Virus record (IMG/VR): IMGVR_UViG_3300035670_000014
Coordinates: 106,949 to 170,948 of that record
DNA: 64,000 bases
Strand: one strand, 5' to 3'
DNA from: a virus
A model generated the notes under the pieces. The model did not search any database. It was not told the DNA's origin and saw nothing but the letters and a program-made list of their open reading frames with translations. Shown here piece by piece: positions 17,804-39,336 of this stretch (the first letter of the stretch is position 1; every line of letters starts with the position of its first letter). The position numbers were made by a program, and so were the translations under genes.

Positions 17804-17833
17804 CTCTCTTGAAAGGATTAAGTGTTAAATGTT

Positions 17834-18464: not shown

Positions 18465-19011
18465 TATAAGTCCTTTAGTTGGTTTAGCAAAATAAAATCT
18501 TCTATTTTATGAGTATACACCCATACCCATGGGTAAGCAGAGCTTACCAAGTCACAAAAGGCTAAATAAAACAACAAGTTCCTCGGCGGCGGAATATAAC
18601 AATGTCAATTTTCTACTTCTTCTAGACTAAAATCTACAAGTTAGAAAAACAATCCTTCTATTTTACCTAATAAAGCAACCTACCTAAAACAACCGAAGGT
18701 TGTTTCACCCAGTAACTATAAATCCTACTAACCCTAGATTCTACAAACCTAATTACTACTAACTAACTACACCTAACACATAACGCATAGACATATATGC
18801 AAGTAGCATAAGACAGGTAAAGCAGAGTGCGAAGTGAGTGCAAAGACAGGTCAAGCAAAGTACGAAGTCAGGTCAAGCAGAGTGCATAAGGTAAGCATAA
18901 GATAGTTACAAAGTAGGCATGAAGCAGTTAACCCTCCGCATAAATCCTACTTCCAGACTTCTTATTACTCTGTTTACTATGGTTATAGTGGGTTTAAGAT
19001 TAGTTGTATTT

Positions 19012-21370: not shown

Positions 21371-21467
21371 ACAAATCTCCTAATGCTTGCCCCGTATCTG
21401 GAAATCAGATACTGATAAGAAAGGCATAATAAAGGCCCCGAAGGGGCCTGGGTCACAACAGTGGGAT

Positions 21468-21713
21468 TCACCGCGTGTATAACAGATCAGTCGCGAGTTC
21501 AAACACTCGGTTAAAGTATTCGAGCTGAGACTGGTTGAGTCTACTATAATTTGCAATAGTAAACTCCAGAGGATGCGCATCCGGCGTATATTCAATTTCA
21601 ACATTGAACAACCCAGACTGCAAATCCAGCTTCTTACTCTTGGAAGATAGCATGACCCTACATAAGTTGATCACATCTCCCTCTTCAATGAGCTGTTGTA
21701 TTTTACTCATCAC
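21468..21713 (-). CDS. hypothetical protein
   Basis: Coupled to upstream ORF. Confidence 0.55.
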   Translation of the reverse strand: MMSKIQQLIEEGDVINLCRVMLSSKSKKLDLQSGLFNVEIEYTPDAHPLEFTIANYSRLNQSQLEYFNRVFELATDLLYTR

Positions 21714-22246
21714 ATCCTCTTGAAAGAAACTTCAGCAACAATCTTGTGATTGTCGATGAGATCAGGGATTGAGCACAATTTGCCTAAGTCTAACCAAGTC
21801 TGAATGTTCCCATTAGGGTCACTTTCAAATCCCAGAATCTCACTAGGACCACCCCAAGGAGGAATGGTCCAGGAAGTTACAATGTAACTGTTTCCCTTCT
21901 TCCAAAGAAACTGAGATCCCTTGGCATCGGGATTGACCGGCCCAAGAAGTTTCAACTCACTGAACTTCTCGTTCTGAGTCTTGATCTTGATGATGAACGT
22001 CATCTCATTCAAAACATAGTTTTTGAACTTCTGGAAGAACACACACTGTTCAAACATGTCACTGAATTTGCCATTGATTGCATCAATGACCTCGTACTCG
22101 TCCTGAGCGATGAAGACATGAATCTTCTCATACTCAGTGTGGATTGAGATGCAGTACTCTTTACTTTGAGTACTGTTCCCGAAGCTGTAAGTAGCACCAC
22201 TCTCAGCTAAAACCTTAGCCGTACAAAAGAAAACATCGTTACTCAT
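21710..22246 (-). CDS. hypothetical protein
   Basis: GGAGG RBS, 178 aa. Confidence 0.7.
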   Translation of the reverse strand: MSNDVFFCTAKVLAESGATYSFGNSTQSKEYCISIHTEYEKIHVFIAQDEYEVIDAINGKFSDMFEQCVFFQKFKNYVLNEMTFIIKIKTQNEKFSELKLLGPVNPDAKGSQFLWKKGNSYIVTSWTIPPWGGPSEILGFESDPNGNIQTWLDLGKLCSIPDLIDNHKIVAEVSFKRM

Positions 22247-22410
22247 CTAACCCTCCTAATCTAAAGTAAAAGGAACCAAGATAAAGGCCCCGAAGGGGCC
22301 AAGGTCATTTGTCTCTAATGTCGGAGAGACCCGTGATCAAAAAGCCCCTGAACACAGATAACACCAGTATGGTGCACCTGTGCCCAAGGGCATCACGTCC
22401 CGAGTGGGAC

Positions 22411-22953
22411 TTAGAACGGCAGGGCCTCGTCTTCCGACGAAGTGGCCACCGGCTCCGAAGGAGCCGTGGCCTTGCGGCCCGGTCCCCGACGGGCCGGCTG
22501 GGCTGCCTCGGTGCCTTGCTTCGCGATCAGCGAAGCAAGGTGGCTGAGTTGCTCCGGGGTGAAGTTCATTGCTGAACCACCACCTGAACCCGAGCCGCCA
22601 GTCGAACCCGACCCACCGCGAGCACGCTCTGCACCGCGGGGATCCAGCGTGAGCTGGGTCACCTGCATCTTGAGCGCAACGCCGTCCGTCCCGTCCTTAC
22701 GCTTGAAGGACACGGGCTCCAGCGAAGTAGAGTCCACGGTCAAGAAGTCGCCCTTGTGGACGTAGCGCTTCACTACGTCTGCGAGCGAGTCGCTGTTGAC
22801 GTAACAGTCGTGCTGTGTAGCACGAGTCACTTCCACTCCGTTGGCGTCCTTCCACCGCTTATTGTGGATAAGGCGGAACACCACGGAACCGGAGTCAAGG
22901 ATCTGAGGGTCTGCTGCAACGTTTCCGGTGACGGAATAATTCTGTCGTGACAT
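22411..22953 (-). CDS. ssb: single-stranded DNA-binding protein
   Basis: VTGNVAADP...KRWKDANG...KRYVHKGD...FKRKDG, Gly linker, acidic C-tail EDEALPF; start MSRQNY after GGAGG. Confidence 0.85.
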   Translation of the reverse strand: MSRQNYSVTGNVAADPQILDSGSVVFRLIHNKRWKDANGVEVTRATQHDCYVNSDSLADVVKRYVHKGDFLTVDSTSLEPVSFKRKDGTDGVALKMQVTQLTLDPRGAERARGGSGSTGGSGSGGGSAMNFTPEQLSHLASLIAKQGTEAAQPARRGPGRKATAPSEPVATSSEDEALPF

Positions 22954-23324
22954 GGTGGCACCTCCTGGTGTGTTTGGTAAATGAGCAGGACATGTCAACC
23001 TGCTCACCATAAAGGACCCGAAGGGGCCTTGCGCTAGAAGCCTCGGAATGAAGGCGAAAGGTAGTTGTGTGCACGGCGCTGGGTAATGGACACGGAGCGA
23101 GCGAAGCGAGCGGAGTTCGCCGGCTTACAAGAAAGAACTGAGAAAAAAGCCCCAACTGGGGCTGAGCACCTACTCACGAAGCATTTGCTTGTAGTGAGTA
23201 AGTTCTAGCTGGTGGGCGATCTTTATCCGGCGTATCTTGGTTTCCAGCTTGTCTATGTAGATAGCCAGGCCGGCGTTGCAACCACAGGCAAATACTAAGA
23301 TGATGTCATACATGAACTGGGGCA

Positions 23325-23573
23325 TCATGACTTCACCAGAGCCATGTCCAGGAGCCGCTGGACCTTCTGACGATAGACCTGGCGGTCGTAGTCCTCAACT
23401 GGAATAGACTGCTGAAGATGAGGCGTGTTGGTCAACTCAAAGACCTGAGCCTCCAGGTGATTGATTCGCTCAACAAACCTCATCTTCATTTCCCAGATGT
23501 ACATCCACATGATGATCAACAGGGCAGTCTCAGCAGCGGAAAGGAACATGAGAAAATTTAAACCAGTATCCAT
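23325..23573 (-). CDS. membrane-anchored coiled-coil protein, paralog A
   Basis: TM helix then EMKMRFVERINHLEAQ. Confidence 0.7.
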   Translation of the reverse strand: MDTGLNFLMFLSAAETALLIIMWMYIWEMKMRFVERINHLEAQVFELTNTPHLQQSIPVEDYDRQVYRQKVQRLLDMALVKS

Positions 23574-23616
23574 GGCAATCCTCCTGTTTTAGTCCGGCGA
23601 AATGCCAGACTTGTCA

Positions 23617-23817
23617 TTATAAAGATCCCGAAGGGATCTTGTGCCCTGTAGCTTCTTCATTGATCAGACTCGGCCAAGAAGTACGAGCCAGCTGAGCTTC
23701 AAGGTTGGCAACTCGGTCAGAGTTGCGCATCTTGAGTTCATAGATGTAAAGCCAGAGGATCACAACCATTCCGGTCATGAAGGCAGAGAGTGTCATGTAA
23801 AAGTAAGTAAAGTCCAT
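23617..23817 (-). CDS. membrane-anchored coiled-coil protein, paralog B
   Basis: TM helix then ELKMRNSDRVANLEAQ; same AGGAGGATT leader. Confidence 0.7.
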   Translation of the reverse strand: MDFTYFYMTLSAFMTGMVVILWLYIYELKMRNSDRVANLEAQLARTSWPSLINEEATGHKIPSGSL

Positions 23818-23856
23818 GAGAATCCTCCTGTTTAGTTCAGCGAAATGCTGAACGTG

Positions 23857-24114
23857 TCAGGCCAAAGACCCCGAAGGGGTCTGAGTCCCGCAGTAGTTCA
23901 AATCATGGTTATTAAGAGTAGAGATCAGAGCCACATAAGACACCTGGATGTCAAGCCGGGCTCCGTATCCAAATCTTTGCTCGACGTCACGAATGATTCG
24001 ATGCTCAGCATCACTGCTTGAGCAGCAAACTCTTCCTCTGGCAAGAAAATACTCACTCTCTCCAAGTATTGGAGTCTTGAATACTTTAGCTTCGTAGTAC
24101 CATGGCATTCTCAT
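23857..24114 (-). CDS. hypothetical protein
   Basis: AGGAGGA RBS, downstream of hairpin 24170. Confidence 0.65.
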   Translation of the reverse strand: MRMPWYYEAKVFKTPILGESEYFLARGRVCCSSSDAEHRIIRDVEQRFGYGARLDIQVSYVALISTLNNHDLNYCGTQTPSGSLA

Positions 24115-24568
24115 AAGTCCTCCTGTATTTTGGTTTTACTTGGGGTATCCCAAGTGCAAGATGCAAGTAAAAGATCCCGAAGGGATCTTTGTGCCTTGGA
24201 GCTGTTTACTTTTGAGGATAAAGGTCTCTAATGTCGGAGTGCAAGTTTGAAAAGACGGGGCGTTACGAAAGCCCCTGAACAACGACACTGTTCAATGCGT
24301 GCGCCCGCGCTGGTTTTCAGGCCGGCGTACAAAAGTTTAGTCTTCTTCTAGAAAAAAGAAACCCCATAGTGACCAGCTATGGGGGAATTCACTAAGGATA
24401 CACTAATGTATCAACTCGTGAACTCGGCAGGGAGGGTGTCTGCCTTCTCACCACATAGTCCCCGAAGGGGACTTGTTCCCTTAGCCAGAGATTATCTGTC
24501 TAGTATAAGGGAAATAACTGAAAATGAAAAGCCCCACTAGGGGGCAGAGCGAGATAGATGATGTTCTT

Positions 24569-24808
24569 CTATTCTGTGATTGAAACAGAATCTTCTGACA
24601 CCACCGGCTTGATACCCGAGCGACCTTCTACGATCGCCATAAAGCGACCGAGGAACTGCTCGCTAACACCAAGAGCAGAGATGTACTCTGCTTCAGTGTA
24701 TTCGACGGTAGCCTCTATCTCCAACTTTAAGGACTTATCCAGAATCCCAGCGCCAGGGTTAACGAAGGAAGCCGGAACAAGGGCATTGATTCTGAAAGAA
24801 GACTTCAC
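24569..24808 (-). CDS. hypothetical protein
   Basis: AAGGTG RBS, followed by terminator ~24526-24546. Confidence 0.6.
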   Translation of the reverse strand: MKSSFRINALVPASFVNPGAGILDKSLKLEIEATVEYTEAEYISALGVSEQFLGRFMAIVEGRSGIKPVVSEDSVSITE

Positions 24809-24941
24809 TGTTTCACCTTTTAATTGACTGGGGCGAAATTGCCCAGATGGTTTAATACCCTCGTTGCCATGAGGGCGGAGCCCGATGGTCTGCCTGAGCG
24901 AAGCGAACTACGCCGGCGCCAGTTGAAACTCAACTTCCTGC

Positions 24942-25160
24942 TCAATGATAGTATGAGAAGTAACTCTCATGGAGCAGTGTGCTGAGGCAGACCAGGGACA
25001 ATATGGTCGGTGCCCAGAAGAAACCAATCATCATAAAGTGGTCGAAGTTGTTGATGCTTGAGAAGCCTCGCTTGGCCCCATCAACCTGCTCGTTGGTAAA
25101 GCGAACTGTACACATGATTGACAACCACAAGCTAGCAGCAAATGCAAATACCTGGAACAT
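24942..25160 (-). CDS. small membrane protein
   Basis: Two hydrophobic segments, GAGGTG RBS. Confidence 0.6.
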   Translation of the reverse strand: MFQVFAFAASLWLSIMCTVRFTNEQVDGAKRGFSSINNFDHFMMIGFFWAPTILSLVCLSTLLHESYFSYYH

Positions 25161-25328
25161 AATTCACCTCTAATTTATCAGTAGGAAGAAATAGCCGAAA
25201 TGGCCGGAGAAAATGCTCGGTCACACTATGGGCCCCGAAGGGGCCCTGGAGCCTATGTGTCTTGGATGCAGGATAAGAGCTGAAAATGAGAAGCCCCACG
25301 AAGGGGCAAGAAAATACCATGGACACAG

Positions 25329-25505
25329 CTAAGCGGGTGTTACGACCACTGGCTGCATCTGATAGTACCCATAGCCGACTACACCAAGAAGGTAAGCCTC
25401 GGCTGACTGCTGTGCCTCCTCCAAAGAGGAGGCTTCAATTGCCCACGTCAAGACGAACGGATCGTCCCACGCGGGGCTAAGGTTAAAGTTGGCTCTGAAA
25501 AGCAT
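25329..25505 (-). CDS. hypothetical protein (MLFRANF...)
   Basis: AGGAG RBS, between hairpin 25570 and terminator ~25290. Confidence 0.6.
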   Translation of the reverse strand: MLFRANFNLSPAWDDPFVLTWAIEASSLEEAQQSAEAYLLGVVGYGYYQMQPVVVTPA

Positions 25506-25627
25506 GGCAACTCCTGTGGTGCTTTGCACCCGTGTTTGATCCAGGGAATCCCAGATCTAGTCGACTTATGGGCCCCGAAGGGGCCCTGGAGCCTATATGT
25601 CTAAGACTTAGGGTAAAGCTGGAAATG

Positions 25628-25647
25628 AAAAGCCCCCAGAAGGGGGC
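25628..25647 (-). terminator. intrinsic terminator after MYG1 gene
   Basis: GCCCCC-TTCT-GGGGGC-TTTT on minus strand. Confidence 0.65.
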
Positions 25648-25671
25648 AGGCGGTAGAGTTACCGCAACAGC

Positions 25672-26673
25672 TTAGCGGCCGGTGGCTAGCTTCGCCATTG
25701 CAAGCACACCCTCTCGGGTGGCCGCGCCGGCGATGAAGCGTCCAGGGTGACAGAAGATGGCATCTGCCACTCCAGTCAGAGCCTGAAGCTCCGAGTCACG
25801 CTTCGCTGCCCACTCCTCGGGCAGAGGAAGTCGCTTGTCAAACGACCCCTCCGAGGGAGGAACGCACTGAAGCATCCACTGACCTCTGGGGTCGGGATAG
25901 ACAACGAAGTCTATCCCTGTGGAGGAGTCAGCGTTAGCAGCGATAACTGGTCCTTGCCAGGAGCCGCCACGCTCCAGCACCAGCACGGTTTCGCCCTCAG
26001 CGAGGGCTTCCTGTGCCAGTTCCAGGATGCGGGCACGATCCAGCTCCGCCTTCATAGCGGAGCGAATCTCGGCAGCCAGCAGCGTGCCGGCCAACTCGAC
26101 TGCCCGCTCGAAAGCGGAGTCGAAGTCACCACCGTCCTCGGTGGGGTTCATCGCGCTGATAGCGCGACTCACCGACCAAACGTTGAGGCCCCGAGGAGCT
26201 GCTCCGACGTCTGCAGCGTCCACTGGCTGCACGACCTGTCGGTCGATCAGCTCCCAGACTGCCTCGGTGGCCGGGTCCGTGGTGTGCCCGCAAACCATGG
26301 CGATTGCGGTCCTGCCGAACGCGGCCCATGCCAGCCCGAAGGCTGCATAGGGAGCACCCTCGGGGGTGCCACCTCGACGGCCAGCAGCGTCCGTAGGCCT
26401 CCACTGGTGGTGGTCGAGGTAGTGGAGCGGGCCGGACTGTGCATGGTTGCGCTGCGTTTCATGACGTCCTCCGACGTCAATGACCGCAATCATGCAGCTG
26501 TCCAGGATCTCGGGCTGGCGAGTCCTGACAACAGCCAGACCCTCGCCGCAGTCAAATGCCAGCGCCGCCACGGCGCAGGCAAACGTCTCGTCTGCGTGGA
26601 ACACACCATCGTGTGTTCCGATGTGAGCGGGAGCAATTTTGGCTGCAGTTGTGTCGATGGTATGAATCAGCAT
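25672..26673 (-). CDS. MYG1 (UPF0160) family DHH 3'-5' exonuclease
   Basis: IGTHDGVFHADE, VVRTR, DVGG, LDHHQ, VDAADVG, LPEEW, AIFCHPGRFI. Confidence 0.9.
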   Translation of the reverse strand: MLIHTIDTTAAKIAPAHIGTHDGVFHADETFACAVAALAFDCGEGLAVVRTRQPEILDSCMIAVIDVGGRHETQRNHAQSGPLHYLDHHQWRPTDAAGRRGGTPEGAPYAAFGLAWAAFGRTAIAMVCGHTTDPATEAVWELIDRQVVQPVDAADVGAAPRGLNVWSVSRAISAMNPTEDGGDFDSAFERAVELAGTLLAAEIRSAMKAELDRARILELAQEALAEGETVLVLERGGSWQGPVIAANADSSTGIDFVVYPDPRGQWMLQCVPPSEGSFDKRLPLPEEWAAKRDSELQALTGVADAIFCHPGRFIAGAATREGVLAMAKLATGR

Positions 26674-26790
26674 GACTTCTCCTGTGGCCCAGAGGGCCGG
26701 TTTTGACTCGGGGGAGTCCCGAGTCTGGTCGCCTTATGGCACCCGAAGGGTGCCTGGACTTATAAGTCTCAGATCTAGGCAAGACCTGAG

Positions 26791-26813
26791 AAAGAAAAAG
26801 CCCCTTTCGGGGC
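26791..26813 (-). terminator. intrinsic terminator
   Basis: GCCCC-GAAA-GGGGC-TTTTTCTTT on minus strand. Confidence 0.7.
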
Positions 26814-26819
26814 GGGGGC

Positions 26820-27038
26820 TCAGGAGCTGGGAAGCCCCGGGAGGTTAATTAAGTGGGGACGCTCCGTCAACAACCGGAGCGCGGGCTCATCGCCCATACC
26901 CGGGCGCAGCACTGCCGCGTAGAGGTCCCTCAGCTTTTCGTAGTGTTTCCAGGTGTCCATATCGCGGGTTGTCGACGCGATCCACTTTGCATCATGGTAG
27001 TTGTTATAGCAAATGCTATGGGCCTCGGCTGCTGTCAT
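26820..27038 (-). CDS. hypothetical protein (MTAAEAH...)
   Basis: GGAGGAG RBS, between hairpin 27104 and terminator. Confidence 0.6.
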   Translation of the reverse strand: MTAAEAHSICYNNYHDAKWIASTTRDMDTWKHYEKLRDLYAAVLRPGMGDEPALRLLTERPHLINLPGLPSS

Positions 27039-27160
27039 AACTCCTCCGGTGGCGCCATGCGCCGGTTTTTGACTCAGGGAAATCCTGAGTCTGGTCACAC
27101 TATGGCACCCGAAGGGTGCCTGCAGCCAAAGTCCGTGATATAAGGCAAAAGTTGAGAAAT

Positions 27161-27179
27161 AAAAAACCCCTTTCGGGGT
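27161..27179 (-). terminator. intrinsic terminator
   Basis: ACCCC-GAAA-GGGGT-TTTTT on minus strand. Confidence 0.7.
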
Positions 27180-28080
27180 AGTTTACGCTTATTGCAACTC
27201 ACTTCCGGTTTCATCACCGGCTGGACCCTTCACCTTTACTACCAGCCCTATGATAGGGTATAGTTGCGACCGAAAGGTCGCAGCTGGTCGCTTCCGCGCG
27301 AATAGCGCCGCAGTCAACTATCCACCGGTTTGCACCCCGATGGTAGTCCTGCTAATATGAGTCTAGGTGACTCACAATAAGGGACCCGAAGGGTCCCTGC
27401 AGCTAAAACAACGTAAGAAAAAAGCCCAATCTTGCGACTGAGCTTAATCCCCACCTTCGGTGTATGTTTCGTGGTCTCATCACTCCAACCGCCACTTTCA
27501 GCGGGCCTTGGCAGGCGACGTGTTTCGGTTGTTCCTTGCCTAAGGGAAGCCTAGGTCATAATCTTGACCAATAGAAAAACCCCGAAGGGGTGCATGTCTT
27601 TATAAGAAAAATACCCAACCTGCAGATTGAGTAAATTTCCGAAGAGTGGCCACTCTTCTACCCGAATACCAGAGCCTCTGGTGTTCCCCTCGGGTCAGGG
27701 GGGCTTTGACATGCCAAAATTATTCTCCCCAAGTTGTCAGCTTGGGGACCCAGTTGTCGCTGGGATGGGGACTTCGCTCCCTGGGGTGACAGCCTCCCCT
27801 TGGGTTCGTATGCACGGTATCAGCGTGCTTAGATACGAAGAACATACCATGGTACCCGAAGGGTACCTGCAGTAAAAGCGGCGTATACAAATCTTTTCTT
27901 CTAGAAAAAAATACCCGCCTAGCGGAGTTCCAATAGTCAAACTATAAGTCTAACTACAAAGGAAAAGAGAACCCCTGCTCGCACCGCCACCTCCAATGGG
28001 AGATGACAGACACGACAGGGGGAGGTTCGCTGCGCTAGACTAGGCAGGCCTCATGTGGCGGGGGGACCACACTCACAAGA
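27180..28080 (-). ncRNA. Cluster of four candidate structured non-coding RNAs (hairpin-to-terminator units without convincing ORFs)
   Basis: Units start at hairpins 28081, 27851, 27579, 27380, end at T-tracts, and are rich in inverted repeats. Confidence 0.4.
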
Positions 28081-28177
28081 AGGCACCCGAAGGGTGCCTG
28101 CAAGTGTGTCCGAATGTCCGGCCGGCAGGGTGTCCGGCAGGGTGTGCGGAGCCCGCGAAGCGGGCAAGCTAGCGGAG

Positions 28178-31100
28178 TTATTCCTTGAAGAACTTCTCCA
28201 CGTACTTCTTGGCCGCAAGCTTGACTTTTGGCAGATTTGCAACCTTACACAGAAGCTGGCCAAGGTGATTCTCACCTTTACCCTTACACTTACCCCAGAA
28301 GGTATCACCCCAGTGGTTATTTTCCACAGGAGTAACTTTGCCGCCCGAAGTTGCAGCGTAAAGGCGAAAAGCCAAATACATTCCTTCTGGAGTATCTGCT
28401 TGGTCAGCAAACTTAGACTCCAGGATGCAGTACATGACATCTAACCTTAAAGCCTCCCAGGTTGCCATTGCATCAGGTGAAGAAGGCTTAAAGTCCTTAG
28501 CCTTCTTCTTTGCCGTGTACCCGTTGTCAGTAGGAAGAATAGTGTTTTCTTCTTGATTGAGAATATTACACTTAATCCACTGATACAAGGTCTCACTTGA
28601 GGCAAAGACAACACCATCTGCCACTACGGAGCACGGATACATGTTAGACATAAACTCAAAGTCCTTAGACTTAAAGTTATCAGTCTCACTGATTACCAGT
28701 TGTCCATAGTGGCTCTTTCGAGCTGAAGGCTCGTGCTCGGTCGACTTATTTGCCAGCTTCAACAAGATGTCACCGTGACACTTCTTGGGTGCACACCAGC
28801 ACACTAAGTCCTTGCCTTTCAATTCATGCAAAGATTTCATGAGTTCTGGTTGTTGTACTACCCAGTCAGCGTACTTCTCCACAGCTTCGTCTCGCGTCTG
28901 ACACTTCCACTTGGCTGATGTTTCAGCCTGGTGGCTAAATGGATTACCCCACTTAGTAGGGCGTCCAATGTAGACTGCGGTTTCGGGAGCCGTGTTGGCA
29001 TGCTTGTTGTGCACCACTGGCAAGCCAGGAGGAGTCGGAGGCGTGTCATTAACAACACCAACCAAAGACACATGACGAGCATTCTTCTTGCCCAAGGCAA
29101 GATACTTGTCATAGGTGTCCTTAACACCTCCAATTGGTCCGTTCTCCCCAAAGGTAAAGGCAATCAAGAAGTCCGAATCTTCCGCAATCAGAGTATTGCG
29201 ATCAAACAGGCCCTTGATCTCTCCACTCTGGAAAGTTACCTGGTGCCGCTCATCCCGAGGATCATTCCAGTAGGTATTAACCATTGCCTGGATGTCCTCA
29301 AGAGACCAGGACTGGCTTTCGCCGTCAGTCATGGCAAGGCTAAACTGCCGGTGATACTTATTCATGGCATCACCTGCGTCGTTTGCCTCTTTGACAGTAA
29401 AGGCATTATTCTCAAACTCAGCACCAAGGTGCAAAGTAAGAGCTTCAACCTCTGCGCCCATGAGGAGGGATATTGCAACATGGTCAGACCAAGCCGCACC
29501 TCCACTGACAAGACGAATCGCCTCGGCACCAGTTGCAGCCTTAATTGCTGCAACAGCCTTCTTGGTGCGCTCAACCATGAACAAGAAATGTTCTTTGGTC
29601 AAGTTCTCACCGCGGCCAGCGGTGCCAATAACACCCAGAGTCACCGTCTTCTCAGGCAAACGGTAGTAGCCGTCGATGTCCTCGGTGCGATTATCGCCAT
29701 CGCCGTCAAAAGTGACGACATAACGACTCTCATCGTTCCCAAGGAAGCTGATACCAGAGTAACCAGCTGCCTTCACTCGTGTGAAGAAGGCGTTGCTGTT
29801 GTCCCCTGGATTCAGCAGGTCGAACGGCTTACCAGTCTCCCGGTAGTGCTCAGACCGCAGCTGCTCGTAGGCCGCCCTTCCATCCTTGGACAGTCTAACC
29901 AAGAAGTTGGTAAGGTCAACCTTACGGGAGTCAATCTGACTTCCATAGGTCTTTGCCTCCTCCTTGTCCTCGGTCCAGTACTGGAATTCACGTCCATCGC
30001 TCCTACCATGAAGACCCTGATAGACAGTGACCTCAGCAGCAACTTCTGGTTCGACTTCTACTTCTGCTGGCCCTGGCTCAGGATCAGAGCCACTACAGAA
30101 GTCAAGAGACAGCTGATAGCGGTAGGAGTGACAGCCACTTCCATCTTCATCTCCGTAGAACCAGAACAAAAGAGGCTCTGAGAAATGGTGCAGGAAGTGC
30201 TCCATGAAAGCTTCATCCATGTCCCCTTGTTCCTCGAAGTACCCTACCTCAATGTAGAGGCCAGTATAGCCTCTCTTCTTGAGGTACAGGAAGAATTCAC
30301 CATCAGACTTCAGGTCCTCAATGAAGTCTTCACGAGTCTGCAGTGACTTAACATCAAGGCAGTACTCGATGTGGATCTTGAGGAGCTGACGAAGGCTGCT
30401 GGGCGACTCAATGACCAGCATAGCCGACCTATCAAAGACTCTATAGTCTCCGACGCCTGCCATGGAAGCTTGACTAGCAAGCCAGGTCGAGAAGTCCTCT
30501 TCCTCTTCCTCATCCCCCTCGTAGTACTTAGACGCAAGGATAAGGTTTGGATCAGGATCTGTAAATGGATGCCTATAAGTAGGCACTTCCACTTCAGGTT
30601 CCGCCTTCACCTCAGTCTTGATCTCGACTACCTCAGACTCGACAACCTCAGGCTTAGCCTCGACAACTTCAGCCTCGATCACCTCACTGTAAGTGAAGTC
30701 CTCGACTGCCACATCTTCGAGACCATCGAAGTCGTAGTTGTCGAAGTCCACATCAGTGTGATAGCCGATGGGGCCTGAGGTGTAGTCCACCTGCTCAACC
30801 GAAGGAGCGAACTCCGACAGGTCCAGCTTGCCGAGAGGAGAAACCTCGCCCTCAAATGCAACCGTGACCTTAAAGGTCGGGTGCAGAACCTGCACCGCTG
30901 GGTTGCTTGCCTTGGTATTCCCGGTCACATCAGTTTCGATGCTGATGACACGGTACTTGTCAAGGCCCTTGTGGGAGATAAACTCCTCAAGCAGCTCGGG
31001 GGTGACGACCTTCGTGTCTTTGAAGAAATCCCTGAAGGCCGTGTTGATCAAGGTTGTAGCACCCCTCTCAACCCTCAGCTTGCCAAGGAAATTCTCACCC

Positions 31101-34100
31101 TTGGTCTTGAGGATTCCACCACGCAGAACGTCACTCAGAAGCTGACCAACAACCTCAGAGTTGATCTGAGAAGCAACCTCAGAATCAAGCACGAAGGCAT
31201 CGCCAAACTCTGACTTCCGCTTGACCATCGGGGTCTTGATGTCAAGTCCCAACTCAGCCACGTCAGGCCCCTTGCCATTGATGAAGGCAAAGTAGGCCTT
31301 CCCGAAGTCCTTATACTCGTCGTTAAACGAGAAACCAAGGACAACGGTGCTCTGAGGAGCGGAAGCGCCCAGGACATTCAGGGCCTTGAGCGAGTAGACC
31401 CAAGGACCCTCAGGCAGGCCGTCAGCAGACATGACCGGCGTCCCGTCCTCATTCAGGTAGTTGCCCACATACAGAGTGTGGATGGGCAGCTTGTCAACCT
31501 GAATTGAACCGAAGCTCCGGCGGCCGCTCTTGATGAACTGCTCGCAGGAAAGCGCCCGCTCAGGATTGGCCTGGTCAGTCTTGAACGCGTTCGCACGCTT
31601 GACCAGCTGGAGGAAGGTCCAGAGGGCAAAGCGCAGCTTGCCAGACTCATTCCAGGCATGCCACTCCTTGAGCCAGGCCTGCTCGACAGCTGCCCTTGCA
31701 CGGATTCGGCTCTTCTTGTCAAGAGGAAGAGCTTCAACCTGGGCAATCTTGTCGAATCGACCCCTGTTCAAGCGAGAGCAGAAGTCTGCAAAACCTGCAA
31801 TCTCTGCCTCGTGGGTGCCAAGGGCAGCCTCAAGCTGAAGCCAGGGTGACTCCTCAAGAGTCTGCTCGACCTGCTCGAAGGCGATCCGCAACACGGAATC
31901 CTTGTACTTCTCGAACAAGTCAAAGACCCATGAAGTAGCACGCTCAACCTTCACGTTCTTGAACGCAAAGTGCAGTGCCTTGATGCCCTGACCGGTCGCA
32001 GCATCACCCTCCTGAAGGAGCTGACTCTGCCCAGCAAAAGGAGCCGCAAAGGCCGCAATGCCACGCTTCATCAGCCAGCCAGGGAAGTAGAACTTCATCT
32101 GGCTTGCAGGCAGCATGTGCATGCTGTACGAGACGGTAGTTTCACCCTCGTACTTTTCGACCTTCTTGCTCGGGTCGCCGAACAGAGCAAGGCCCATGTA
32201 CATGGAAACAGACCAGATCATCTGCATGACCTTTACTGCCTCCGGCACATTCTGACCCTGAGTGTCGGCGTCGATGACGTTCGACAGCATCTCTGACATG
32301 GTCAGCAAGATGAGGTCGAGGTAGGTCAAGGACTTCCACTCACCGTTCGGGTCAAGGCCATCAGACTCAATTACTGACCTGACGTTTGCCCTGAGGTTAA
32401 ACTTGTCACCAAAGTGAACAAGCCCCTGCATGATGGCACCCATCAGCATCTGCACGTTAGCTGCAGTACCAGTGGTGCCCTTCATGTTCTCCAGTGCAAA
32501 GATTGCACTGTCGACCCTCTCCAGAGGAGAGCTGAACACCCGGAGGTTGCCGCTCGTGTCAAGTGCACCCTCGGTGAAGTACCTCTCGGCAAACTGCAGC
32601 TTCGCCATGTTCATGATGAACGCAGTCAAGCCGACTGGGATAGTCGAAGGGGGAAGCTTGGCATTCGTTTTACCTTCTGCCTGCTTCCTATTCCTCCGCT
32701 CCTCAGCCTTCAGGTGAGCGTTGTTCAGCTCCTTGAGGACGAAGTCGTTGGCTGCCCTGTCTCCAACAAGGTCACGAACCAAAGCCTCGTCGTCTCCGCC
32801 AAAGCCAAAGGAGTACCAGCCTTTGAAGTCAAAGCGGGTATCCAGTGCCATGTGCCGGAACTGACCGACCTGAGAGTTCAGGAAGTCAAGAGCCACCTTC
32901 CTCTTCTCCTCGCCGGGAGTCATGGCAATAATGGCCTGCTTCTTGCGCTCCTGGAAGCGGATGCAAGACTTGGCCAAGTCGCCGTGAATCTCCGCCATCC
33001 GGTCGTCAAGGTCTGCACCGTCCTGTGCCTTGAAGAAGATTTCAAAGGCCTCAGGAGTTGGCATGACCCAGCGGCACCCGACTGGCACCGAGTCCATTGG
33101 GACAAGGATACCCCATGCTCCCGACTTGAAAGTCGAAGGGTTCCGGTAATAGAACACCAACGGGGAGCCATGCAGACCCATGATCCGGTTGTAATCTGCA
33201 GTGTTGCAGAAAATAACCCGGTTGTAATCATAGGTCAAGCCAAGTGGCTTGAGGTGATTCTCGACCAGAGACTTAATCTGCTCCTCAGATACTGCATTCT
33301 TATATGCAGACCAAAGAGCCTTCGTCTCGTCCTTGACGTTGAGCTTCATCACCTCAGCTACGGCCTCAAACATCAGGCCAGGGTGCACCTGCGGATACAC
33401 CGACTCAGCGATCTTGGTATACACCATCTCGCCGTTGGCGTTTGGCATCTTCAATGCCAAGGGCAGTCGGGTCCTTGCAGGGTCCATTGCCTGATTGGTG
33501 AGCTGGTTCATGATTGGCGCTACCAGCTGAGGCAGAGGAATGCCGTTCCCAATCACCTTAGCAGTCCCACCGAGGACCTCCTTGAGGCGGCTCGCAGCGA
33601 GGAGTGCGTCAGCAACGCCTTCAGGCTCTGACTCATCCCCATCCATGAGGTCGGTGAAGATCTCAGAGTCAAGCTCTGACATTTCGTTCTTCACTCTCAG
33701 GTTGGAGAGAATCTCCTCAAGGCGGGTCGTTGCATCCTCTTCAATCTTCTTGAAGATGTCAATGACCGCCGGATCCCTCAGGTCAAACCCGTTGATCAGG
33801 CTCTGAGTGTCAGTGCAGACACCCTTACGAGCCTTCGGGACACCCGAGTTCAGGATGATCGTAGCTCGATCATCTGACCAGGTGGGGCAGATTTCACCCT
33901 TTGACCCGTAGGCAATCATGTCCTTCCCAGTAGCCTTCATGAACTCTGGAGACATGATGTGGAAGCCACCCTTCACCATGAAGTTGGTGAAGTAGGCTCG
34001 GCCAATGAGGATCTTCCCATCGAGCTTGCCTGCCTTGAGGTCAGCCAGATAGTCCTGAGGCAGCACGAGAGCCATGAGGCGGCGAGAGACAAACACCACG

Positions 34101-35188
34101 CCGTCATAGATCTCATCGGCAAGCATTGCTGCCTTAGCCTTCTCGAACAGGCTGTCACCGTTAACTGGCTTGACGACCAGGACAGAGTCCTTAAGAGCAT
34201 TAAGCTTGAAGGTCTGCCCTTCCAGCTTGTAGCTCTTATTGAACTCAACGACCTTGCCACGGAGCAAGTTCGGCGCAAAGTACTGAGAAATGTACTTCTG
34301 CGCCTTCGCTGCAGCCTGCACCTGCTTCGCCGGTGAGCCGTCCTCTTTGACCTTCACTCCATAGACGCAAGAAGCAAGCTTCATTGCTTCGTCGTCAGTT
34401 GCCTTAGACAAGGCATCATTGGTCAAGTTGAGGAACAAGCAGGTGGGGTTGACATCGGGAGTCTTATCAATTCCCTTGTCGCTCTCCTCCCAGGTCTCCC
34501 CAGCGGCCTCAGCTGCCTTCCGCTTCAACTCCCTGAGCTGCTTCTTCTCAGCCTTCTTGGAGGCCTCGATTCGTCGCTCATAGAGTGAGTCCATCGAGTC
34601 TTTGCTGAGAGCATTGACCAGAGAGGTCCTGGCAGCAACCTCGACCTGCTCGGACCCATAGTTGGTCTGAATCAGGTTGAGTGTTGCCCATGCCTGAGCA
34701 AGCTCGCCCGCAGTCAGGTGGCGCAGGTCGCCGTGCTTCTTCAGACAGTCAAGCGCTCGCTTGACCGTGAAGTAGAAGTCAATGCTTGCGCCTGAGCTTG
34801 GAGCCCGGTGCAGGTGATGCAAAGACTTCTGCCAGACATTGACGTCGCCAGGCTTCACGTTAAACGGCTTAAAGCCGTAAAACTTCTCAAAAGCGGCCAT
34901 GATTTCTGCCGTCTTCTGAGCATACGGTGCCATGGAGTCAACGTGGACCTTGTAGGCCACCTTGGCATCTTTCTCGTCAAATCCTGGCCAGTTGAAAAGC
35001 TCAGGAGACGTCAGGTTGAGTCCAACCTTATGCCCAAGCAGAACACGGATCATTGCCACTGCCGCAGGCAATACGAGGGACTTGTAGTCTTCCTCGTTGC
35101 AGCGGATAGCCTCGATGTTCTCAGACTTCAGCGTCTTGAAGAGTTCGAGTGCCTGGTCATTGGCTACTTCTACTTTCACTTCGCTCAT
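28178..35188 (-). CDS. Polyvalent protein: putative single-chain two-barrel (YonO/RdRP-like) RNA polymerase plus ART-like, SLOG-like, DUF4326 and NADAR domains
   Basis: MVKGG, GSKGE, FYYRNPS, QDGADLDD (RNAP-like); YQG...QYWTEDKEEAKTYG...GYSGI (ART-like); VSGGAAWSDH...RNTLIAEDSDFLIAF (SLOG); YIGRPTKWGNPF...LKGKDLVCWCAPKKCHGD (DUF4326); MSNMYPC...SETLYQ...WGDTFWGKCKGKGENHLG (NADAR); likely start MSEVKV after AGGAGG. Confidence 0.65.
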   Translation of the reverse strand: MSEVKVEVANDQALELFKTLKSENIEAIRCNEEDYKSLVLPAAVAMIRVLLGHKVGLNLTSPELFNWPGFDEKDAKVAYKVHVDSMAPYAQKTAEIMAAFEKFYGFKPFNVKPGDVNVWQKSLHHLHRAPSSGASIDFYFTVKRALDCLKKHGDLRHLTAGELAQAWATLNLIQTNYGSEQVEVAARTSLVNALSKDSMDSLYERRIEASKKAEKKQLRELKRKAAEAAGETWEESDKGIDKTPDVNPTCLFLNLTNDALSKATDDEAMKLASCVYGVKVKEDGSPAKQVQAAAKAQKYISQYFAPNLLRGKVVEFNKSYKLEGQTFKLNALKDSVLVVKPVNGDSLFEKAKAAMLADEIYDGVVFVSRRLMALVLPQDYLADLKAGKLDGKILIGRAYFTNFMVKGGFHIMSPEFMKATGKDMIAYGSKGEICPTWSDDRATIILNSGVPKARKGVCTDTQSLINGFDLRDPAVIDIFKKIEEDATTRLEEILSNLRVKNEMSELDSEIFTDLMDGDESEPEGVADALLAASRLKEVLGGTAKVIGNGIPLPQLVAPIMNQLTNQAMDPARTRLPLALKMPNANGEMVYTKIAESVYPQVHPGLMFEAVAEVMKLNVKDETKALWSAYKNAVSEEQIKSLVENHLKPLGLTYDYNRVIFCNTADYNRIMGLHGSPLVFYYRNPSTFKSGAWGILVPMDSVPVGCRWVMPTPEAFEIFFKAQDGADLDDRMAEIHGDLAKSCIRFQERKKQAIIAMTPGEEKRKVALDFLNSQVGQFRHMALDTRFDFKGWYSFGFGGDDEALVRDLVGDRAANDFVLKELNNAHLKAEERRNRKQAEGKTNAKLPPSTIPVGLTAFIMNMAKLQFAERYFTEGALDTSGNLRVFSSPLERVDSAIFALENMKGTTGTAANVQMLMGAIMQGLVHFGDKFNLRANVRSVIESDGLDPNGEWKSLTYLDLILLTMSEMLSNVIDADTQGQNVPEAVKVMQMIWSVSMYMGLALFGDPSKKVEKYEGETTVSYSMHMLPASQMKFYFPGWLMKRGIAAFAAPFAGQSQLLQEGDAATGQGIKALHFAFKNVKVERATSWVFDLFEKYKDSVLRIAFEQVEQTLEESPWLQLEAALGTHEAEIAGFADFCSRLNRGRFDKIAQVEALPLDKKSRIRARAAVEQAWLKEWHAWNESGKLRFALWTFLQLVKRANAFKTDQANPERALSCEQFIKSGRRSFGSIQVDKLPIHTLYVGNYLNEDGTPVMSADGLPEGPWVYSLKALNVLGASAPQSTVVLGFSFNDEYKDFGKAYFAFINGKGPDVAELGLDIKTPMVKRKSEFGDAFVLDSEVASQINSEVVGQLLSDVLRGGILKTKGENFLGKLRVERGATTLINTAFRDFFKDTKVVTPELLEEFISHKGLDKYRVISIETDVTGNTKASNPAVQVLHPTFKVTVAFEGEVSPLGKLDLSEFAPSVEQVDYTSGPIGYHTDVDFDNYDFDGLEDVAVEDFTYSEVIEAEVVEAKPEVVESEVVEIKTEVKAEPEVEVPTYRHPFTDPDPNLILASKYYEGDEEEEEDFSTWLASQASMAGVGDYRVFDRSAMLVIESPSSLRQLLKIHIEYCLDVKSLQTREDFIEDLKSDGEFFLYLKKRGYTGLYIEVGYFEEQGDMDEAFMEHFLHHFSEPLLFWFYGDEDGSGCHSYRYQLSLDFCSGSDPEPGPAEVEVEPEVAAEVTVYQGLHGRSDGREFQYWTEDKEEAKTYGSQIDSRKVDLTNFLVRLSKDGRAAYEQLRSEHYRETGKPFDLLNPGDNSNAFFTRVKAAGYSGISFLGNDESRYVVTFDGDGDNRTEDIDGYYRLPEKTVTLGVIGTAGRGENLTKEHFLFMVERTKKAVAAIKAATGAEAIRLVSGGAAWSDHVAISLLMGAEVEALTLHLGAEFENNAFTVKEANDAGDAMNKYHRQFSLAMTDGESQSWSLEDIQAMVNTYWNDPRDERHQVTFQSGEIKGLFDRNTLIAEDSDFLIAFTFGENGPIGGVKDTYDKYLALGKKNARHVSLVGVVNDTPPTPPGLPVVHNKHANTAPETAVYIGRPTKWGNPFSHQAETSAKWKCQTRDEAVEKYADWVVQQPELMKSLHELKGKDLVCWCAPKKCHGDILLKLANKSTEHEPSARKSHYGQLVISETDNFKSKDFEFMSNMYPCSVVADGVVFASSETLYQWIKCNILNQEENTILPTDNGYTAKKKAKDFKPSSPDAMATWEALRLDVMYCILESKFADQADTPEGMYLAFRLYAATSGGKVTPVENNHWGDTFWGKCKGKGENHLGQLLCKVANLPKVKLAAKKYVEKFFKE

Positions 35189-35271
35189 GAGACCCTCCTG
35201 GTCTACGTGGGGTTGGTTCCCCTGGTCATTTGCATCCGGCAGACTATCTGCCTTTTGCACAGTAATAATTG

Positions 35272-35967
35272 TCATGACTTGGCCTTAGGCTCGGCTAAGC
35301 AGGGTGACTGCAAACCCTCCGAAGGAGGGTCGGGCCATGCTTGCTCTGTATCCAGAGCAAGGTAAGCAGCCTCGGCAGCTGCCTGCTCCTCAAGCTGGCA
35401 GTCGTGCATCCACTGGTCGAACATTGCCTGAGACCAAGCAAGCTCGTCATCATCAGTGAAGTGCCTAGACCTGTCCGCTGCAGCAGGTACTTGCTCGACC
35501 CACTTCTCCAAAGCTCGTTCCAGTTCCCATCGCTGGAATTCCAGGTTTGGCCAGTCATTGCCAAGGAACAGGGAACAGCCCATGGCCGAGGGCAAGCTGG
35601 CCATAGAGAAGACCTCAGCCTCCTCCTCAACATGCCACTGATCGTAGCTGTTAATGGCTTGAGCCCAGCGGATTCGGACCCCGCAGCTCAGAACCTGCCC
35701 TTTTTCCTGAGCCTGAGCCCACTCGATCTGCTCTCGCAGCTCCGAGTAGTACTCATCCCAGTCGTGCATGGTAGCGTAAGATACGCCACCCACTGCAACC
35801 TCAGTGTTGAGGCTGTAGAAGTGCGAATCCTGACGCAACATCTCTGCCGCGACCTCGGCTGCTTCCTCAGTAGTTTCCCACTGAGCAAGGAGATCAGGGC
35901 ACTCGTCCGCCTTACTGGCCTTGAACTTACCCACAATCATAGAGATCATAAGCTTAAAGTATTTCAT
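35272..35967 (-). CDS. acidic Trp-rich hypothetical protein
   Basis: GAGGG RBS before MKYFKL; GC3-rich codon use. Confidence 0.7.
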   Translation of the reverse strand: MKYFKLMISMIVGKFKASKADECPDLLAQWETTEEAAEVAAEMLRQDSHFYSLNTEVAVGGVSYATMHDWDEYYSELREQIEWAQAQEKGQVLSCGVRIRWAQAINSYDQWHVEEEAEVFSMASLPSAMGCSLFLGNDWPNLEFQRWELERALEKWVEQVPAAADRSRHFTDDDELAWSQAMFDQWMHDCQLEEQAAAEAAYLALDTEQAWPDPPSEGLQSPCLAEPKAKS

Positions 35968-37906: not shown

Positions 37907-38030
37907 AACTCCTCCGATGGTTAACCTATACACCATAAGGTAAGGGATTAACAGAGAATGAGACGACATGTCTCATTCCCCATGAAAAAAGAATGCAACC
38001 AGGCCGAAGCCTGGCTGCATTCTTCAAACT

Positions 38031-38468
38031 TTATGCCCAGTTTCTACTCTTGGCCTTGAGGGGCCTGTGGTACCTGGGCTCCGGTGGTGGGAGCTTTGCC
38101 GGCTCCCACTCCTGGGCCCAGGCCAGTCGCTCTTCCGCCTCCCGCTCCAAGCGGGCCCGGAGGCGGCGGTCGGCCTCCGCCTCTTCCCGGGCGGCCTTGG
38201 CCGCCTGGGCCTCCCGCACCAGGCGGGCGTCTTTCGACGCCCACTCATTTTCCCAGGCCGAGCACCTGGGTACGTAGTCGGGCATTGGGGCCTGCGCCCA
38301 GAGTGGGCGCTGGTCCTTGGGTGCGGGGGCCGGGGCAGGTGCGGCGGCGGTAGTGCTGGTGGTTGCGGTGGGGGTGGTGGCGGTGATGGCAGCCATGGCC
38401 CGAGCTTCTGCTCGGGCAACGATGACTATGACTACGACGACAATAACAACGATGATGTCAAGCAACAT
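38031..38468 (-). CDS. membrane-anchored Thr/Pro/Ala-rich coiled-coil protein
   Basis: Val/Ile TM, TTPTATT-PAPAP linker, EAQAAKAAREEAE. Confidence 0.7.
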   Translation of the reverse strand: MLLDIIVVIVVVVIVIVARAEARAMAAITATTPTATTSTTAAAPAPAPAPKDQRPLWAQAPMPDYVPRCSAWENEWASKDARLVREAQAAKAAREEAEADRRLRARLEREAEERLAWAQEWEPAKLPPPEPRYHRPLKAKSRNWA

Positions 38469-38594
38469 GAGCGAAACTCCCGACTAGTACCTACTAGCCT
38501 TAATGGGATGGATAGGAAATGAGACAGAATGTCTCATTCCCCATGAAAAAAGAATGCAACCAGGCCGAAGCCTGGCTGCATTCTTCAATCTTCC

Positions 38595-38780
38595 TTACTT
38601 AGCCCGAGTCCTCCAGGCATGAAGGAACTTAACTGGATGCATTACTGCATCCAAAAAGTCAAGGAAAGTGACCGGGTCTGCGCCCAGGTGGGCCCATGCC
38701 CACTCCGCGACGACGTAGATCAGGAAGGCCACCGATGCCAGAACGAGGATAGAAACAGCCACCAAGAACAATGTGAACAT
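38595..38780 (-). CDS. small membrane protein
   Basis: N-terminal TM, GGGAG RBS from repeat leader. Confidence 0.65.
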   Translation of the reverse strand: MFTLFLVAVSILVLASVAFLIYVVAEWAWAHLGADPVTFLDFLDAVMHPVKFLHAWRTRAK

Positions 38781-38905
38781 GGCGAACTCCCGGCTAGCGA
38801 CACGCTAGCCTTATTGGGATCAATAGGAAATGAGACAGAATGTCTCATTCCCCATGAAAAAAGAATGCAACCAGGCCGAAGCCTGGCTGCATTCTTTAAT
38901 CTTAC

Positions 38906-39208
38906 TTACCAGCTATCGACAAAAGCGTCGACAAGCTGACCCCAGGTCACCCAGTCCTGGCACGCCAACCCAAGCTCGTCGTGCCAGCCCAGGTCGGGGT
39001 CCATGCCCCCGAGCTCGCTGAGGATCACGACTGTGTCCCACATTGCGCCAGATGGAGTTCCCTTGAAGAGGAACTCGGCCGTCAGGCGGTCGATCCCATG
39101 GGGGCCGACGTAACCCACTGTAAAATCTCCGCTGTAGCTGAGGATGTTGGGGCAGTAGCCCAGCAGGATGCGGGTGGCGGTGATGGTGGTGGTAGTGGTG
39201 TTCTGCAT
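38906..39208 (-). CDS. hypothetical protein (MQNTTTTT...)
   Basis: GGGAG RBS from repeat leader. Confidence 0.65.
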   Translation of the reverse strand: MQNTTTTTITATRILLGYCPNILSYSGDFTVGYVGPHGIDRLTAEFLFKGTPSGAMWDTVVILSELGGMDPDLGWHDELGLACQDWVTWGQLVDAFVDSW

Positions 39209-39336
39209 GGCGAAACTCCCGGCTAGCGACACGCTAGCCATGATGGGATGGATAGGAAATGAGACAGAATGTCTCATTCCCCATGAAAAAAGAATGCAAC
39301 CAGGCCGAAGCCTGGTTGCACCTTTAATCTTAGACC

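Follow-up and report, generated by a model that had tools for sequence, protein, structure and literature searches.

Strand-locked triloop hairpins, candidate promoters of a two-barrel phage RNA polymerase, in the early arm of a virus genome

Here we describe a family of short hairpins with a three-nucleotide loop (triloop) that precede small genes in virus record IMGVR_UViG_3300035670_000014, together with a giant gene immediately upstream of them that is predicted to encode a two-barrel RNA polymerase. The stretch analysed, called the window, is the final 64 kb (positions 106,949 to 170,948) of this 170,948-bp record, which is probably a circular assembly given its 127-bp terminal repeat. 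Minus-strand genes run from about 39.7 kb to the left edge of the window and form the early arm; plus-strand genes, from 40.1 kb on, include the terminase and other large genes that are probably structural. The GC content is 47-57% at about 10-40 kb and 35-40% elsewhere in the genome. Early arms of related contigs likewise have about 50% GC, and the raised value appears to be a conserved property of this module. The large terminase shares 25-31% identity with its nearest cultured relatives, Moorella phage MTATph1, Acinetobacter phage ME3 and Bacillus phage 0305phi8-36. A DNA search with the hairpin region against deposited phages gave no match.

The 15 hairpin elements of the window are listed below in gene sense, each as stem, loop, stem, spacer and box. 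ORF denotes an open reading frame and SSB a single-stranded DNA-binding protein.

28073..28098, minus strand: element 1, AGGCACCC-TTC-GGGTGCCT, TTCTTG and a TGA box; heads a unit without an ORF
27842..27867, minus strand: element 2, GGTACCC-TTC-GGGTACC, ATGGTA and TG; heads a unit without an ORF
27568..27593, minus strand: element 3, 5-bp ACCCC-TTC-GGGGT, then a T-run; heads a unit without an ORF
27372..27397, minus strand: element 4, AGGGACCC-TTC-GGGTCCCT, TTATTG and TGA; heads a unit without an ORF
27095..27120, minus strand: element 5, GGCACCC-TTC-GGGTGCC, ATAGTG and TGAC; 46 nt past the terminator at 27179-27166
26729..26754, minus strand: element 6, GGCACCC-TTC-GGGTGCC, ATAAGG and CGAC; precedes the MYG1-type exonuclease gene
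25561..25586, minus strand: element 7, GGGCCCC-TTC-GGGGCCC, ATAAGT and CGAC
25221..25246, minus strand: element 8, GGGCCCC-TTC-GGGGCCC, ATAGTG and TGAC
24448..24473, minus strand: element 9, AGTCCCC-TTC-GGGGACT, ATGTGG and TGAG; heads a short unit without an ORF
24163..24188, minus strand: element 10, AAAGATCCC-TTC-GGGATCTTT and TG
23857..23882, minus strand: element 11, AGACCCC-TTC-GGGGTCT, TTGGCC and TGA; within the last codons of an upstream 85-aa ORF
23614..23639, minus strand: element 12, AAGATCCC-TTC-GGGATCTT and TGA; overlaps the end of an upstream 66-aa ORF
23004..23029, minus strand: element 13, AGGCCCC-TTC-GGGTCCT with a conserved C.T mismatch, TTATGG and TGAG; precedes an SSB gene
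22276..22301, minus strand: element 14, GGCCCC-TTC-GGGGCC, a T-rich spacer and TG
21424..21449, minus strand: element 15, AGGCCCC-TTC-GGGGCCT, TTATTA and TG; precedes the second SSB gene

All 15 carry the core CCCGAAGGG, which lies on the plus strand every time; 0.33 copies were expected, and the maximum in 100 shuffles was 3. These copies match exactly the number, places and orientation given in a preliminary description of the window made from its letters alone. The genome-wide scan for strand bias that it proposed gives 17 copies on the plus strand and 0 on the minus strand. Every copy lies at the centre of a hairpin that has a 3-nt loop and a stem of 5-9 bp with perfect or nearly perfect pairing; 13 window copies have perfect stems of at least 6 bp. 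The copy centred at 23021 has a single C.T mismatch that recurs in its orthologues in three relatives, and the copy at 27585 has a stem of only 5 bp. Because the genes here run on the minus strand, the plus strand is the template, and it reads C-GAA-G in 15/15 window copies (C-UUC-G in the mRNA sense). Among 170 perfect triloop hairpins of at least 6 bp in the whole genome, 34 have UUC in gene sense, and the runner-up loop has 10. Folding of the 17-nt hairpins with DNA parameters gave -5 to -7.8 kcal/mol, energies that cannot tell GAA from TTC loops or strands (both -7.1 kcal/mol), the parameters containing no bonus for G-N-A loops. The family begins, as the preliminary description had it, right after the giant gene: the first copy, centred at 28090, is 80 nt past that gene's stop codon (28178).

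We aligned 55 elements without gaps, drawn from the window and four related contigs (L015, L019, L020 and L023). The loop is invariant, and all seven stem pairs have changed on both sides; the stems listed in the preliminary description are correct. Paired cells make up 94.2% of 378, compared with 72.3% after shuffling and 26-63% in slid registers, and there are 80 compensatory cells against 18.5 expected. Such covariation argues against a dimeric double-stranded-DNA binding site, and we rejected a dimeric-protein operator since stems of free sequence covary.

On its downstream (3') side the 7-bp stem is followed by six spacer nucleotides rich in T, and these by (T)G(A), whose G stands 16 nt from the loop centre in 15/15 window copies and in at least 90% of the 55 aligned elements. 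A search of the whole genome (171 kb) for stem, TTC, N6 and TG found 19 copies in gene sense and 0 in the opposite sense, with 0.16-0.28 in shuffles. At least six of these 19 lie in the low-GC replication arm, beyond the interval first reported. TG is present at half of all TTC-loop hairpins and at no more than one hairpin for each other frequent loop. The preliminary description had also included a hairpin ahead of the giant gene, ACCCTCC-GAA-GGAGGGT at 35314-35330. It does exist there; however, no TG box follows it and the relatives lack it ahead of the gene, and we dropped it as probably not a member of the family.

The elements have a recurrent place within the gene cassettes. Read in gene sense, a cassette runs from the stop codon of the preceding gene through a tetraloop terminator, 21-58 nt of spacer, the triloop hairpin, the box and one or two leader hairpins to a ribosome-binding site (RBS) and ATG. 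The same layout is found in the window and in L015, L023 and L025. The terminators have a GAAA or UUCG-type tetraloop followed by U7-9.

26800..26813, minus strand: example of an intrinsic terminator, GCCCC-GAAA-GGGGC with a U-tract
27926, 27633, 27445, 27179, 25647, 25307, 24550, 24384 and 23163: further terminators from the terminator scan

Separate terminators lie 21-58 nt upstream of eight window copies and 119-174 nt upstream of two others. This agrees with the earlier view that the hairpins are distinct from the terminators close by. Between 20.5 and 40.3 kb, terminator-like sites number 48 against 18.9 expected, and sigma-70-like promoters number 8 against 10.8 expected; a consensus scan of the same interval (-35 and -10 hexamers 16-18 bp apart) placed zero sigma-70 sites at the elements. 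The spacer between terminator and triloop hairpin often forms a hairpin of its own, and many cassettes have a conserved TCTCAGGTCT..AGATCTGAGA followed by ACATATAGGCTCCAGG (26755-26800 and equivalents). Four or five units of about 95-240 nt (27157-28074; 24350-24450) start at a hairpin element, end at a U-tract terminator and contain no convincing ORF. An Rfam scan of the window matched tRNAs only, with zero matches at these units. Relatives keep a stretch of about 1.3 kb without genes after the polymerase gene.

The giant gene and its predicted parts are as follows.

28178..35275, minus strand: giant polyvalent protein gene, 2365 aa from the first ATG, with a better RBS at the ATG at 35188
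31886..34288, minus strand: two-barrel RNA polymerase module by predicted fold, residues 330-1130
33002..33022, minus strand: candidate catalytic loop DGADLDD, residues 752-758, with D755, D757 and D758 invariant in 12 family members
28241..28999, minus strand: C-terminal DUF4326 and NADAR domains, residues 2093-2173 and 2204-2345

Pfam and PHROGs searches with the 2365-aa protein matched only the C-terminal DUF4326 and NADAR domains, and no RdRP or Rpb1/Rpb2 domain. For the polymerase, phmmer and hmmsearch against the Protein Data Bank (PDB) and hhalign against gp66 of crAss-like phage phi14:2 all gave no match, and the fold search alone identified it. With 12 sequences as input, the model of residues 330-1130 had a mean predicted local distance difference test (pLDDT) score of 73 and a predicted template modelling (pTM) score of 0.73. 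The Foldseek top ranks were QDE-1 (E 4e-6), phi14:2 gp66 (7e-6), the Thermus phage polymerases P32 gp64, P23-45 gp96 and P74 gp62, and RDR2 from plants, with a probability of 1.0 for QDE-1 and 6vr4. An independent full-library structure alignment also put QDE-1 first (Z 15.9, 403 aligned residues, root-mean-square deviation 5.3), followed by RDR2 (Z 13.7), P74 gp62 (12.2) and P23-45 gp96 (10.7); the largest subunits of cellular polymerases scored about 7-8. Isolated double-psi beta-barrel domains match model residues of approximately 293-440. The model thus supports a two-barrel RNA polymerase fold, with two double-psi beta-barrels, for residues 330-1130. The preliminary description had proposed just such a polymerase, and the predicted core resembles those of QDE-1, the crAss-like enzyme and P23-45.

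The acidic loop is an invariant G-A-D-x-D-D rather than the DxDxD of the NADFDGD type, the third Asp having moved by one position. It is preceded by an R-x-P-x-T..GG motif similar to R-x-P-T-L-H of the beta' subunit. Invariant motifs of the family are GR..KGG, NSG..K..TD.Q, DPxRxR, Y.QVHPG, TRxPxTxxGG, DGADxDD, TGxAANxQM and S.MLS..ID..QG; the invariant GR..KGG, K459 and K484, in the first barrel region, are candidates for the conserved basic residues of a beta-like barrel. Partners joined to the polymerase module vary among homologues; in this genome they comprise DUF4326, NADAR and a weak match to ART-PolyVal.

Nine relatives came from an exhaustive HMMER search with residues 330-1450 as query. 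P0003 and P0005 (33% identity, 2020 aa) are large fused proteins, and the seven others, among them P0007 (1168 aa), are stand-alone, at 1090-1260 aa. The close homologues P0002, P0003 and P0004 are about 50% identical to the giant protein; P0002 and P0004 have an N-terminal extension of about 1300 aa. With the polymerase module as query, tblastn gave zero matches, as did IMG/VR, and a metagenome scan returned only four short, tightly packed contigs in which no hairpin family is visible. Gene order around the polymerase is shared by all relatives: its gene stands first in the early arm and is oriented away from the structural genes, and 3' of it lie small genes in well-separated cassettes, SSB genes and, in the close relatives, a MYG1-type exonuclease gene.

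Hairpins are found in the early arms of these relatives as well. Close relatives have C-UUC-G hairpins with different stems, including AAGCACCT/AGGTGCTT, where the closing pairs change too. At the P0005 locus the 7-bp stems are richer in AT and differ in sequence, the core is C-TTC-G and TTGTAATGA or TTGTTGTGA follows, and the stems of L023 are AT-rich (GTTCATC, ATCTACC) and followed by TTGTAATG. At the P0007 locus the hairpin is GGCC-AAA-GGCC, sometimes with ATA, and is followed by TTTTAGTGAGG or CTTTTATGAGG. At the P0006 locus, A-TGG-T hairpins precede small genes. The four lineages sampled suggest, though not at a statistical level, that one architecture (7-bp stem, triloop, T-rich N6, TGA) persists while loops differ between polymerase lineages. 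A loop that changes in this way would be expected if the element were a promoter specific to its polymerase, but not if it were a generic terminator.

We prefer to read the elements as promoters because of their strand lock, their position after a terminator and before a leader, the fixed loop and G, the lack of another promoter motif and the change of loop with lineage. That they are phage-specific promoters seems to us probable, and it is about an even call that a phage two-barrel polymerase reads them. Naming residues 330-1130 of the 2365-aa protein as that reader is more tentative and falls somewhat short of even, and recognition of the elements as template-strand DNA hairpins is less likely still. 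Under the promoter reading, each element would consist of a hairpin, its 7-bp stem free in sequence and its triloop invariant, then six T-rich spacer nucleotides and a (T)G(A) box, with the box G, 16 nt from the loop centre, as the likely start site. Each would head a short cassette that encodes either a small structured RNA or one or a few small genes, and most cassettes would be closed by an intrinsic terminator. The reader would be a phage two-barrel polymerase, most likely the module encoded just upstream of the elements. This module may recognise the hairpin by its shape and loop bases on extruded or single-stranded DNA, like the unrelated virion polymerase of coliphage N4, and the two phage SSBs could assist.

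Several observations weigh against this reading. The L025 lineage has a template loop that reads TTT (AAA in the mRNA sense), not G-N-A. A loose terminator scan picks up four of the 15 window hairpins, many of the relatives' copies have a 5-bp GC stem with UUUU after it, and the TTC-loop hairpins of the low-GC arm include plain terminator-like ones. G.U pairs occur in the mRNA sense only (11 cells against about 1 C.A), which weakly favours a hairpin in RNA or in the non-template strand; all of them are at the two outer pairs beside the T-run, and the asymmetry therefore does not decide between RNA and template DNA. Intrinsic terminators may not stop minimal two-barrel polymerases, in which case there would be less reason to think that every cassette requires a promoter to itself. 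The non-canonical ADxDD loop does not assure catalytic activity. Finally, the reader could be another protein of this virus, P0013 (see below), instead of the giant protein.

The main rival explanation, which we rate as unlikely though by no means negligible, is an RNA-level signal: long early-arm transcripts would be cut or protected by a hairpin-specific RNA-binding protein or endoribonuclease, leaving upstream pieces that end in the terminator hairpin and downstream pieces that start at the leader hairpin. The confinement of G.U wobbles to the mRNA sense fits this explanation, as do the RNA-type hairpins that flank each element (terminator, spacer hairpin and leader) and the conservation in the early arm of a gene from an RNA exonuclease family (MYG1, PF03690). 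Two-barrel polymerases that lack a flap may also run through intrinsic terminators, as discussed for YonO (PMC5467207). However, RNase III needs a stem longer than 7 bp, and no candidate endonuclease was identified. The RNA hairpins of the region have tetraloops (GAAA, UUCG), whereas the family keeps a triloop that RNA does not favour; in the RNA fold of a 171-nt intergenic region, the hairpin is absent from the minimum-energy structure. A G at a fixed 16 nt, past a T-rich spacer, suits a start site more than a cleavage site.

It is improbable that the elements are terminators, or combined terminator and promoter signals, for the phage polymerase, with the U-tract terminators serving the host enzyme. 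TTT(T) follows six window copies and most copies of L015 and L020, and the four scan-positive hairpins would fit. Where there is no separate terminator (21441, 22293, 23631, 23874), the hairpin follows or overlaps the stop codon. However, a T-run is absent after the other nine window copies (ATAGTGTGAC type), the stems of L023 are AT-rich, and most copies lie 21-58 nt past a strong terminator with no gene between. The copies centred at 23874 and 23631 fall within the last codons of the upstream ORF, where they would stop transcription before its stop codon, and for this reason the elements are not plain terminators. The cassettes would also be left without promoters, as no other repeated motif is present.

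Less probable again is a sigma-dependent host-type promoter with a palindromic 17-nt spacer, in which ..CA would be the -35-like and T-A-n-n-n-T the -10-like part, or an operator for a dimeric regulator. The hairpin measures exactly 17 nt and lies between a conserved CA and the T-A-N3-T pattern, and the copy at 23631 has TATAAT. Yet the would-be -11 A is present in only about half of the copies and the next G is nearly invariant, no -35 match was found, and the consensus scan catches none of the sites and shows no enrichment. Free-sequence stem covariation is not expected of a protein-binding palindrome. Least probable of all are single-strand priming signals for lagging-strand synthesis, recognised on SSB-coated DNA by a primase or by the polymerase in that role. 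In favour, every copy is on the same strand of a single replication arm, SSB genes adjoin, and the pattern of a hairpin and then a fixed start trinucleotide is like that of G4-type origins. But the elements are tied to gene starts and terminators, 40-70 nt before an RBS and ATG, and are not spaced independently of genes.

Upstream of the polymerase gene we found a second class of repeated element, called class I.

37957..39278 (also 37586 and 37695), minus strand: four class I cassettes, near-identical, ahead of unrelated small genes

The order in these cassettes is a UUCG-loop terminator, 8 nt, the palindrome AATGAGAC..GTCTCATT, a leader hairpin and an RBS. The palindrome loop is TTC in three window copies and ATGTC in the fourth and in all L015 and L019 copies, and the stem sequence is constant and hence shows no covariation. 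Because the loop of the relatives is ATGTC and the stem does not vary, the class I palindrome is a putative hairpin at most. An ATGAGAC box recurs ahead of a 484-aa gene. From their sequence, the class I elements are a possible second class of promoter.

A second candidate polymerase lies outside the window. P0013 is a 2019-aa ORF at genome positions 13449-19508 (L009:5449-11508), in the virion module between ORFs of 1613 and 2798 aa. It contains TRFPTITGTPRIAG (TRFPTITG) and, about 100 residues on, TTSDRDGDQ, which resemble R-x-P-T-L-H and NADFDGDQ of beta'. On these two motifs alone, P0013 is a candidate virion RNA polymerase. It has only three close homologues, and the AlphaFold model made with four close sequences was unusable (pLDDT 34). 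Alignment of P0013 with gp66 by hhalign gave no match, and an ESM Atlas search was uninformative.

Thermus phage P23-45 has a virion polymerase (gp96) and a non-virion polymerase (gp64) with two promoter classes (PMC10770324). The giant protein belongs by fold to the same enzyme superfamily (Z 10.7 for gp96, 12.2 for P74 gp62), and the present genome likewise combines two candidate polymerases, one in the virion module and one early, with two classes of repeated upstream element. By this analogy, a plausible cascade would have the virion enzyme read class I, leading to the early polymerase, which would then read the triloop elements. The P23-45 promoter classes are AT-rich and GC-rich, and the word 'hairpin' is absent from the text of that paper (PMC10770324). 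The systems also differ in that the proteins have no detectable sequence similarity and that the polymerase here has an ADxDD loop and is fused to DUF4326 and NADAR.

The closest precedent for the elements themselves is phage N4. Its early promoters form hairpins on the template strand, in which a stem of 5-7 bp carries a G-G-A loop with a C:G closing pair; the distance to +1 is measured by four template A residues, gyrase and host SSB are needed, and a T7-like virion polymerase reads them (PMC4496689). The N4 promoters P1-P3 (read by gp50; Schitoviridae) and the present elements, known here from sequence, share a short stem and 3-nt loop on the template strand, a G-N-A loop closed by C:G (GGA in N4, GAA here), stem bases that are partly free with pairing kept, and a gene-sense T run (template A) between stem and start. 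SSB takes part in N4, and SSB genes adjoin the elements here. There are also differences. The N4 reader is a T7-like single-subunit polymerase, whereas the candidate here has a two-barrel fold. N4 starts 11 nt from the loop centre, and the conserved G here is at 16 nt. N4 has three copies, compared with 15-19 or more here, which head most early cassettes, and in a distant lineage of the present family the loop is not G-N-A.

The N4 features invoked in the preliminary description are present in the 5-7-bp stem and the C:G-closed template G-N-A triloop; the spacing of the conserved G departs from that of +1 in N4. The argument from the exceptional stability of C-GAA-G mini-hairpins is not general, since the loop of a distant lineage is AAA in the mRNA sense. 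Searches of the genome with N4 gp50 and its mini-vRNAP part (tblastn and phmmer) revealed no N4-type polymerase at the sequence level, with no match better than E 0.05. A PF00940 search was without match, as it also was in the control genomes.

Other two-barrel enzymes offer partial parallels. The best structural matches are phi14:2 gp66 and Neurospora QDE-1, with no sequence relation to gp66 by hhalign. The former, a virion polymerase, transcribes single-stranded and not double-stranded DNA, and QDE-1 needs RPA (bioRxiv 10.1101/2020.03.07.982082); the preference of both for single-stranded DNA templates fits a promoter that is read on unpaired DNA. No common upstream motif was found for the early transcripts of phi14:2 (bioRxiv 10.1101/2020.03.07.982082), whereas the genome described here has a sharp motif. 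The YonO promoter was left undefined in 2017 (PMC5467207). For Bacillus phage 0305phi8-36, 21-bp phage-specific promoter candidates were proposed for the RdRP-like orf99 (PMC2147016). This distantly related lineage (large terminase 25% identical) also has a repeated phage-only motif in its non-structural arm, ascribed to a polymerase of the RNA interference (RNAi) type, and small monocistronic early cassettes. Compared by description, it differs in that its motif is a sequence logo, never mapped, with no mention of a hairpin. In full-text searches of the literature we found no published hairpin promoter for two-barrel phage polymerases, in keeping with the earlier impression that the combination had not been described.

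Three genes of the early arm deserve mention beside the elements that precede them.

22411..22953, minus strand: SSB gene, 180 aa, PF00436
20945..21370, minus strand: SSB gene, 141 aa, PF00436
25672..26673, minus strand: MYG1-type exonuclease gene (UPF0160), PF03690, E 2e-60, in a cassette headed by a triloop element

The two SSB genes had been recognised in the preliminary description, and the PF00436 matches confirm them. The MYG1-type gene, from an unusual family for a phage, is kept in the early arm of all close relatives. Other repeats also occur in this region. The sequence AACTCCGCT is present four times in the minus sense (window 19251, 23109, 27921 and 28171) and 0 times in the plus sense; its copies adjoin terminators or sit directly after the polymerase stop codon, and it is also found in intergenic regions of L015 and L023. 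Three repeats of AAAAATGT(G/A)GAT..GGGT lie at 39750-40000, in the divergent region between the early and structural arms, and are kept in L015. Tandem small paralogous genes (63-95 aa) at 13975-14978 and 17083-17564 share the upstream context GAATCGCCTTGGGAGGAAGT.

The promoters of single-chain two-barrel phage polymerases (YonO, crAss-like gp66 and those of the 0305phi8-36 type) are largely unknown. The present family supplies a sharply defined element, with pairing kept, stem varied and loop and start box fixed, that is conserved with the enzyme across lineages. More broadly, phage two-barrel polymerases might find their promoters as DNA shapes, with a lineage-specific loop, a start 16 nt away on unpaired template DNA, help from SSB and, in this phage, a cascade of two polymerases and two hairpin classes; this is less likely than not. 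A hairpin promoter of this type has so far been shown only for the unrelated polymerase of coliphage N4. If the proposal is true, an unrelated enzyme would have convergently reinvented the N4 mechanism, and the single-stranded template preference of the crAss-like and QDE-1 enzymes would be explained. It would also provide compact orthogonal promoter-polymerase pairs, and it has a bearing on template choice by the ancestral enzymes from which the eukaryotic RNAi polymerases arose.

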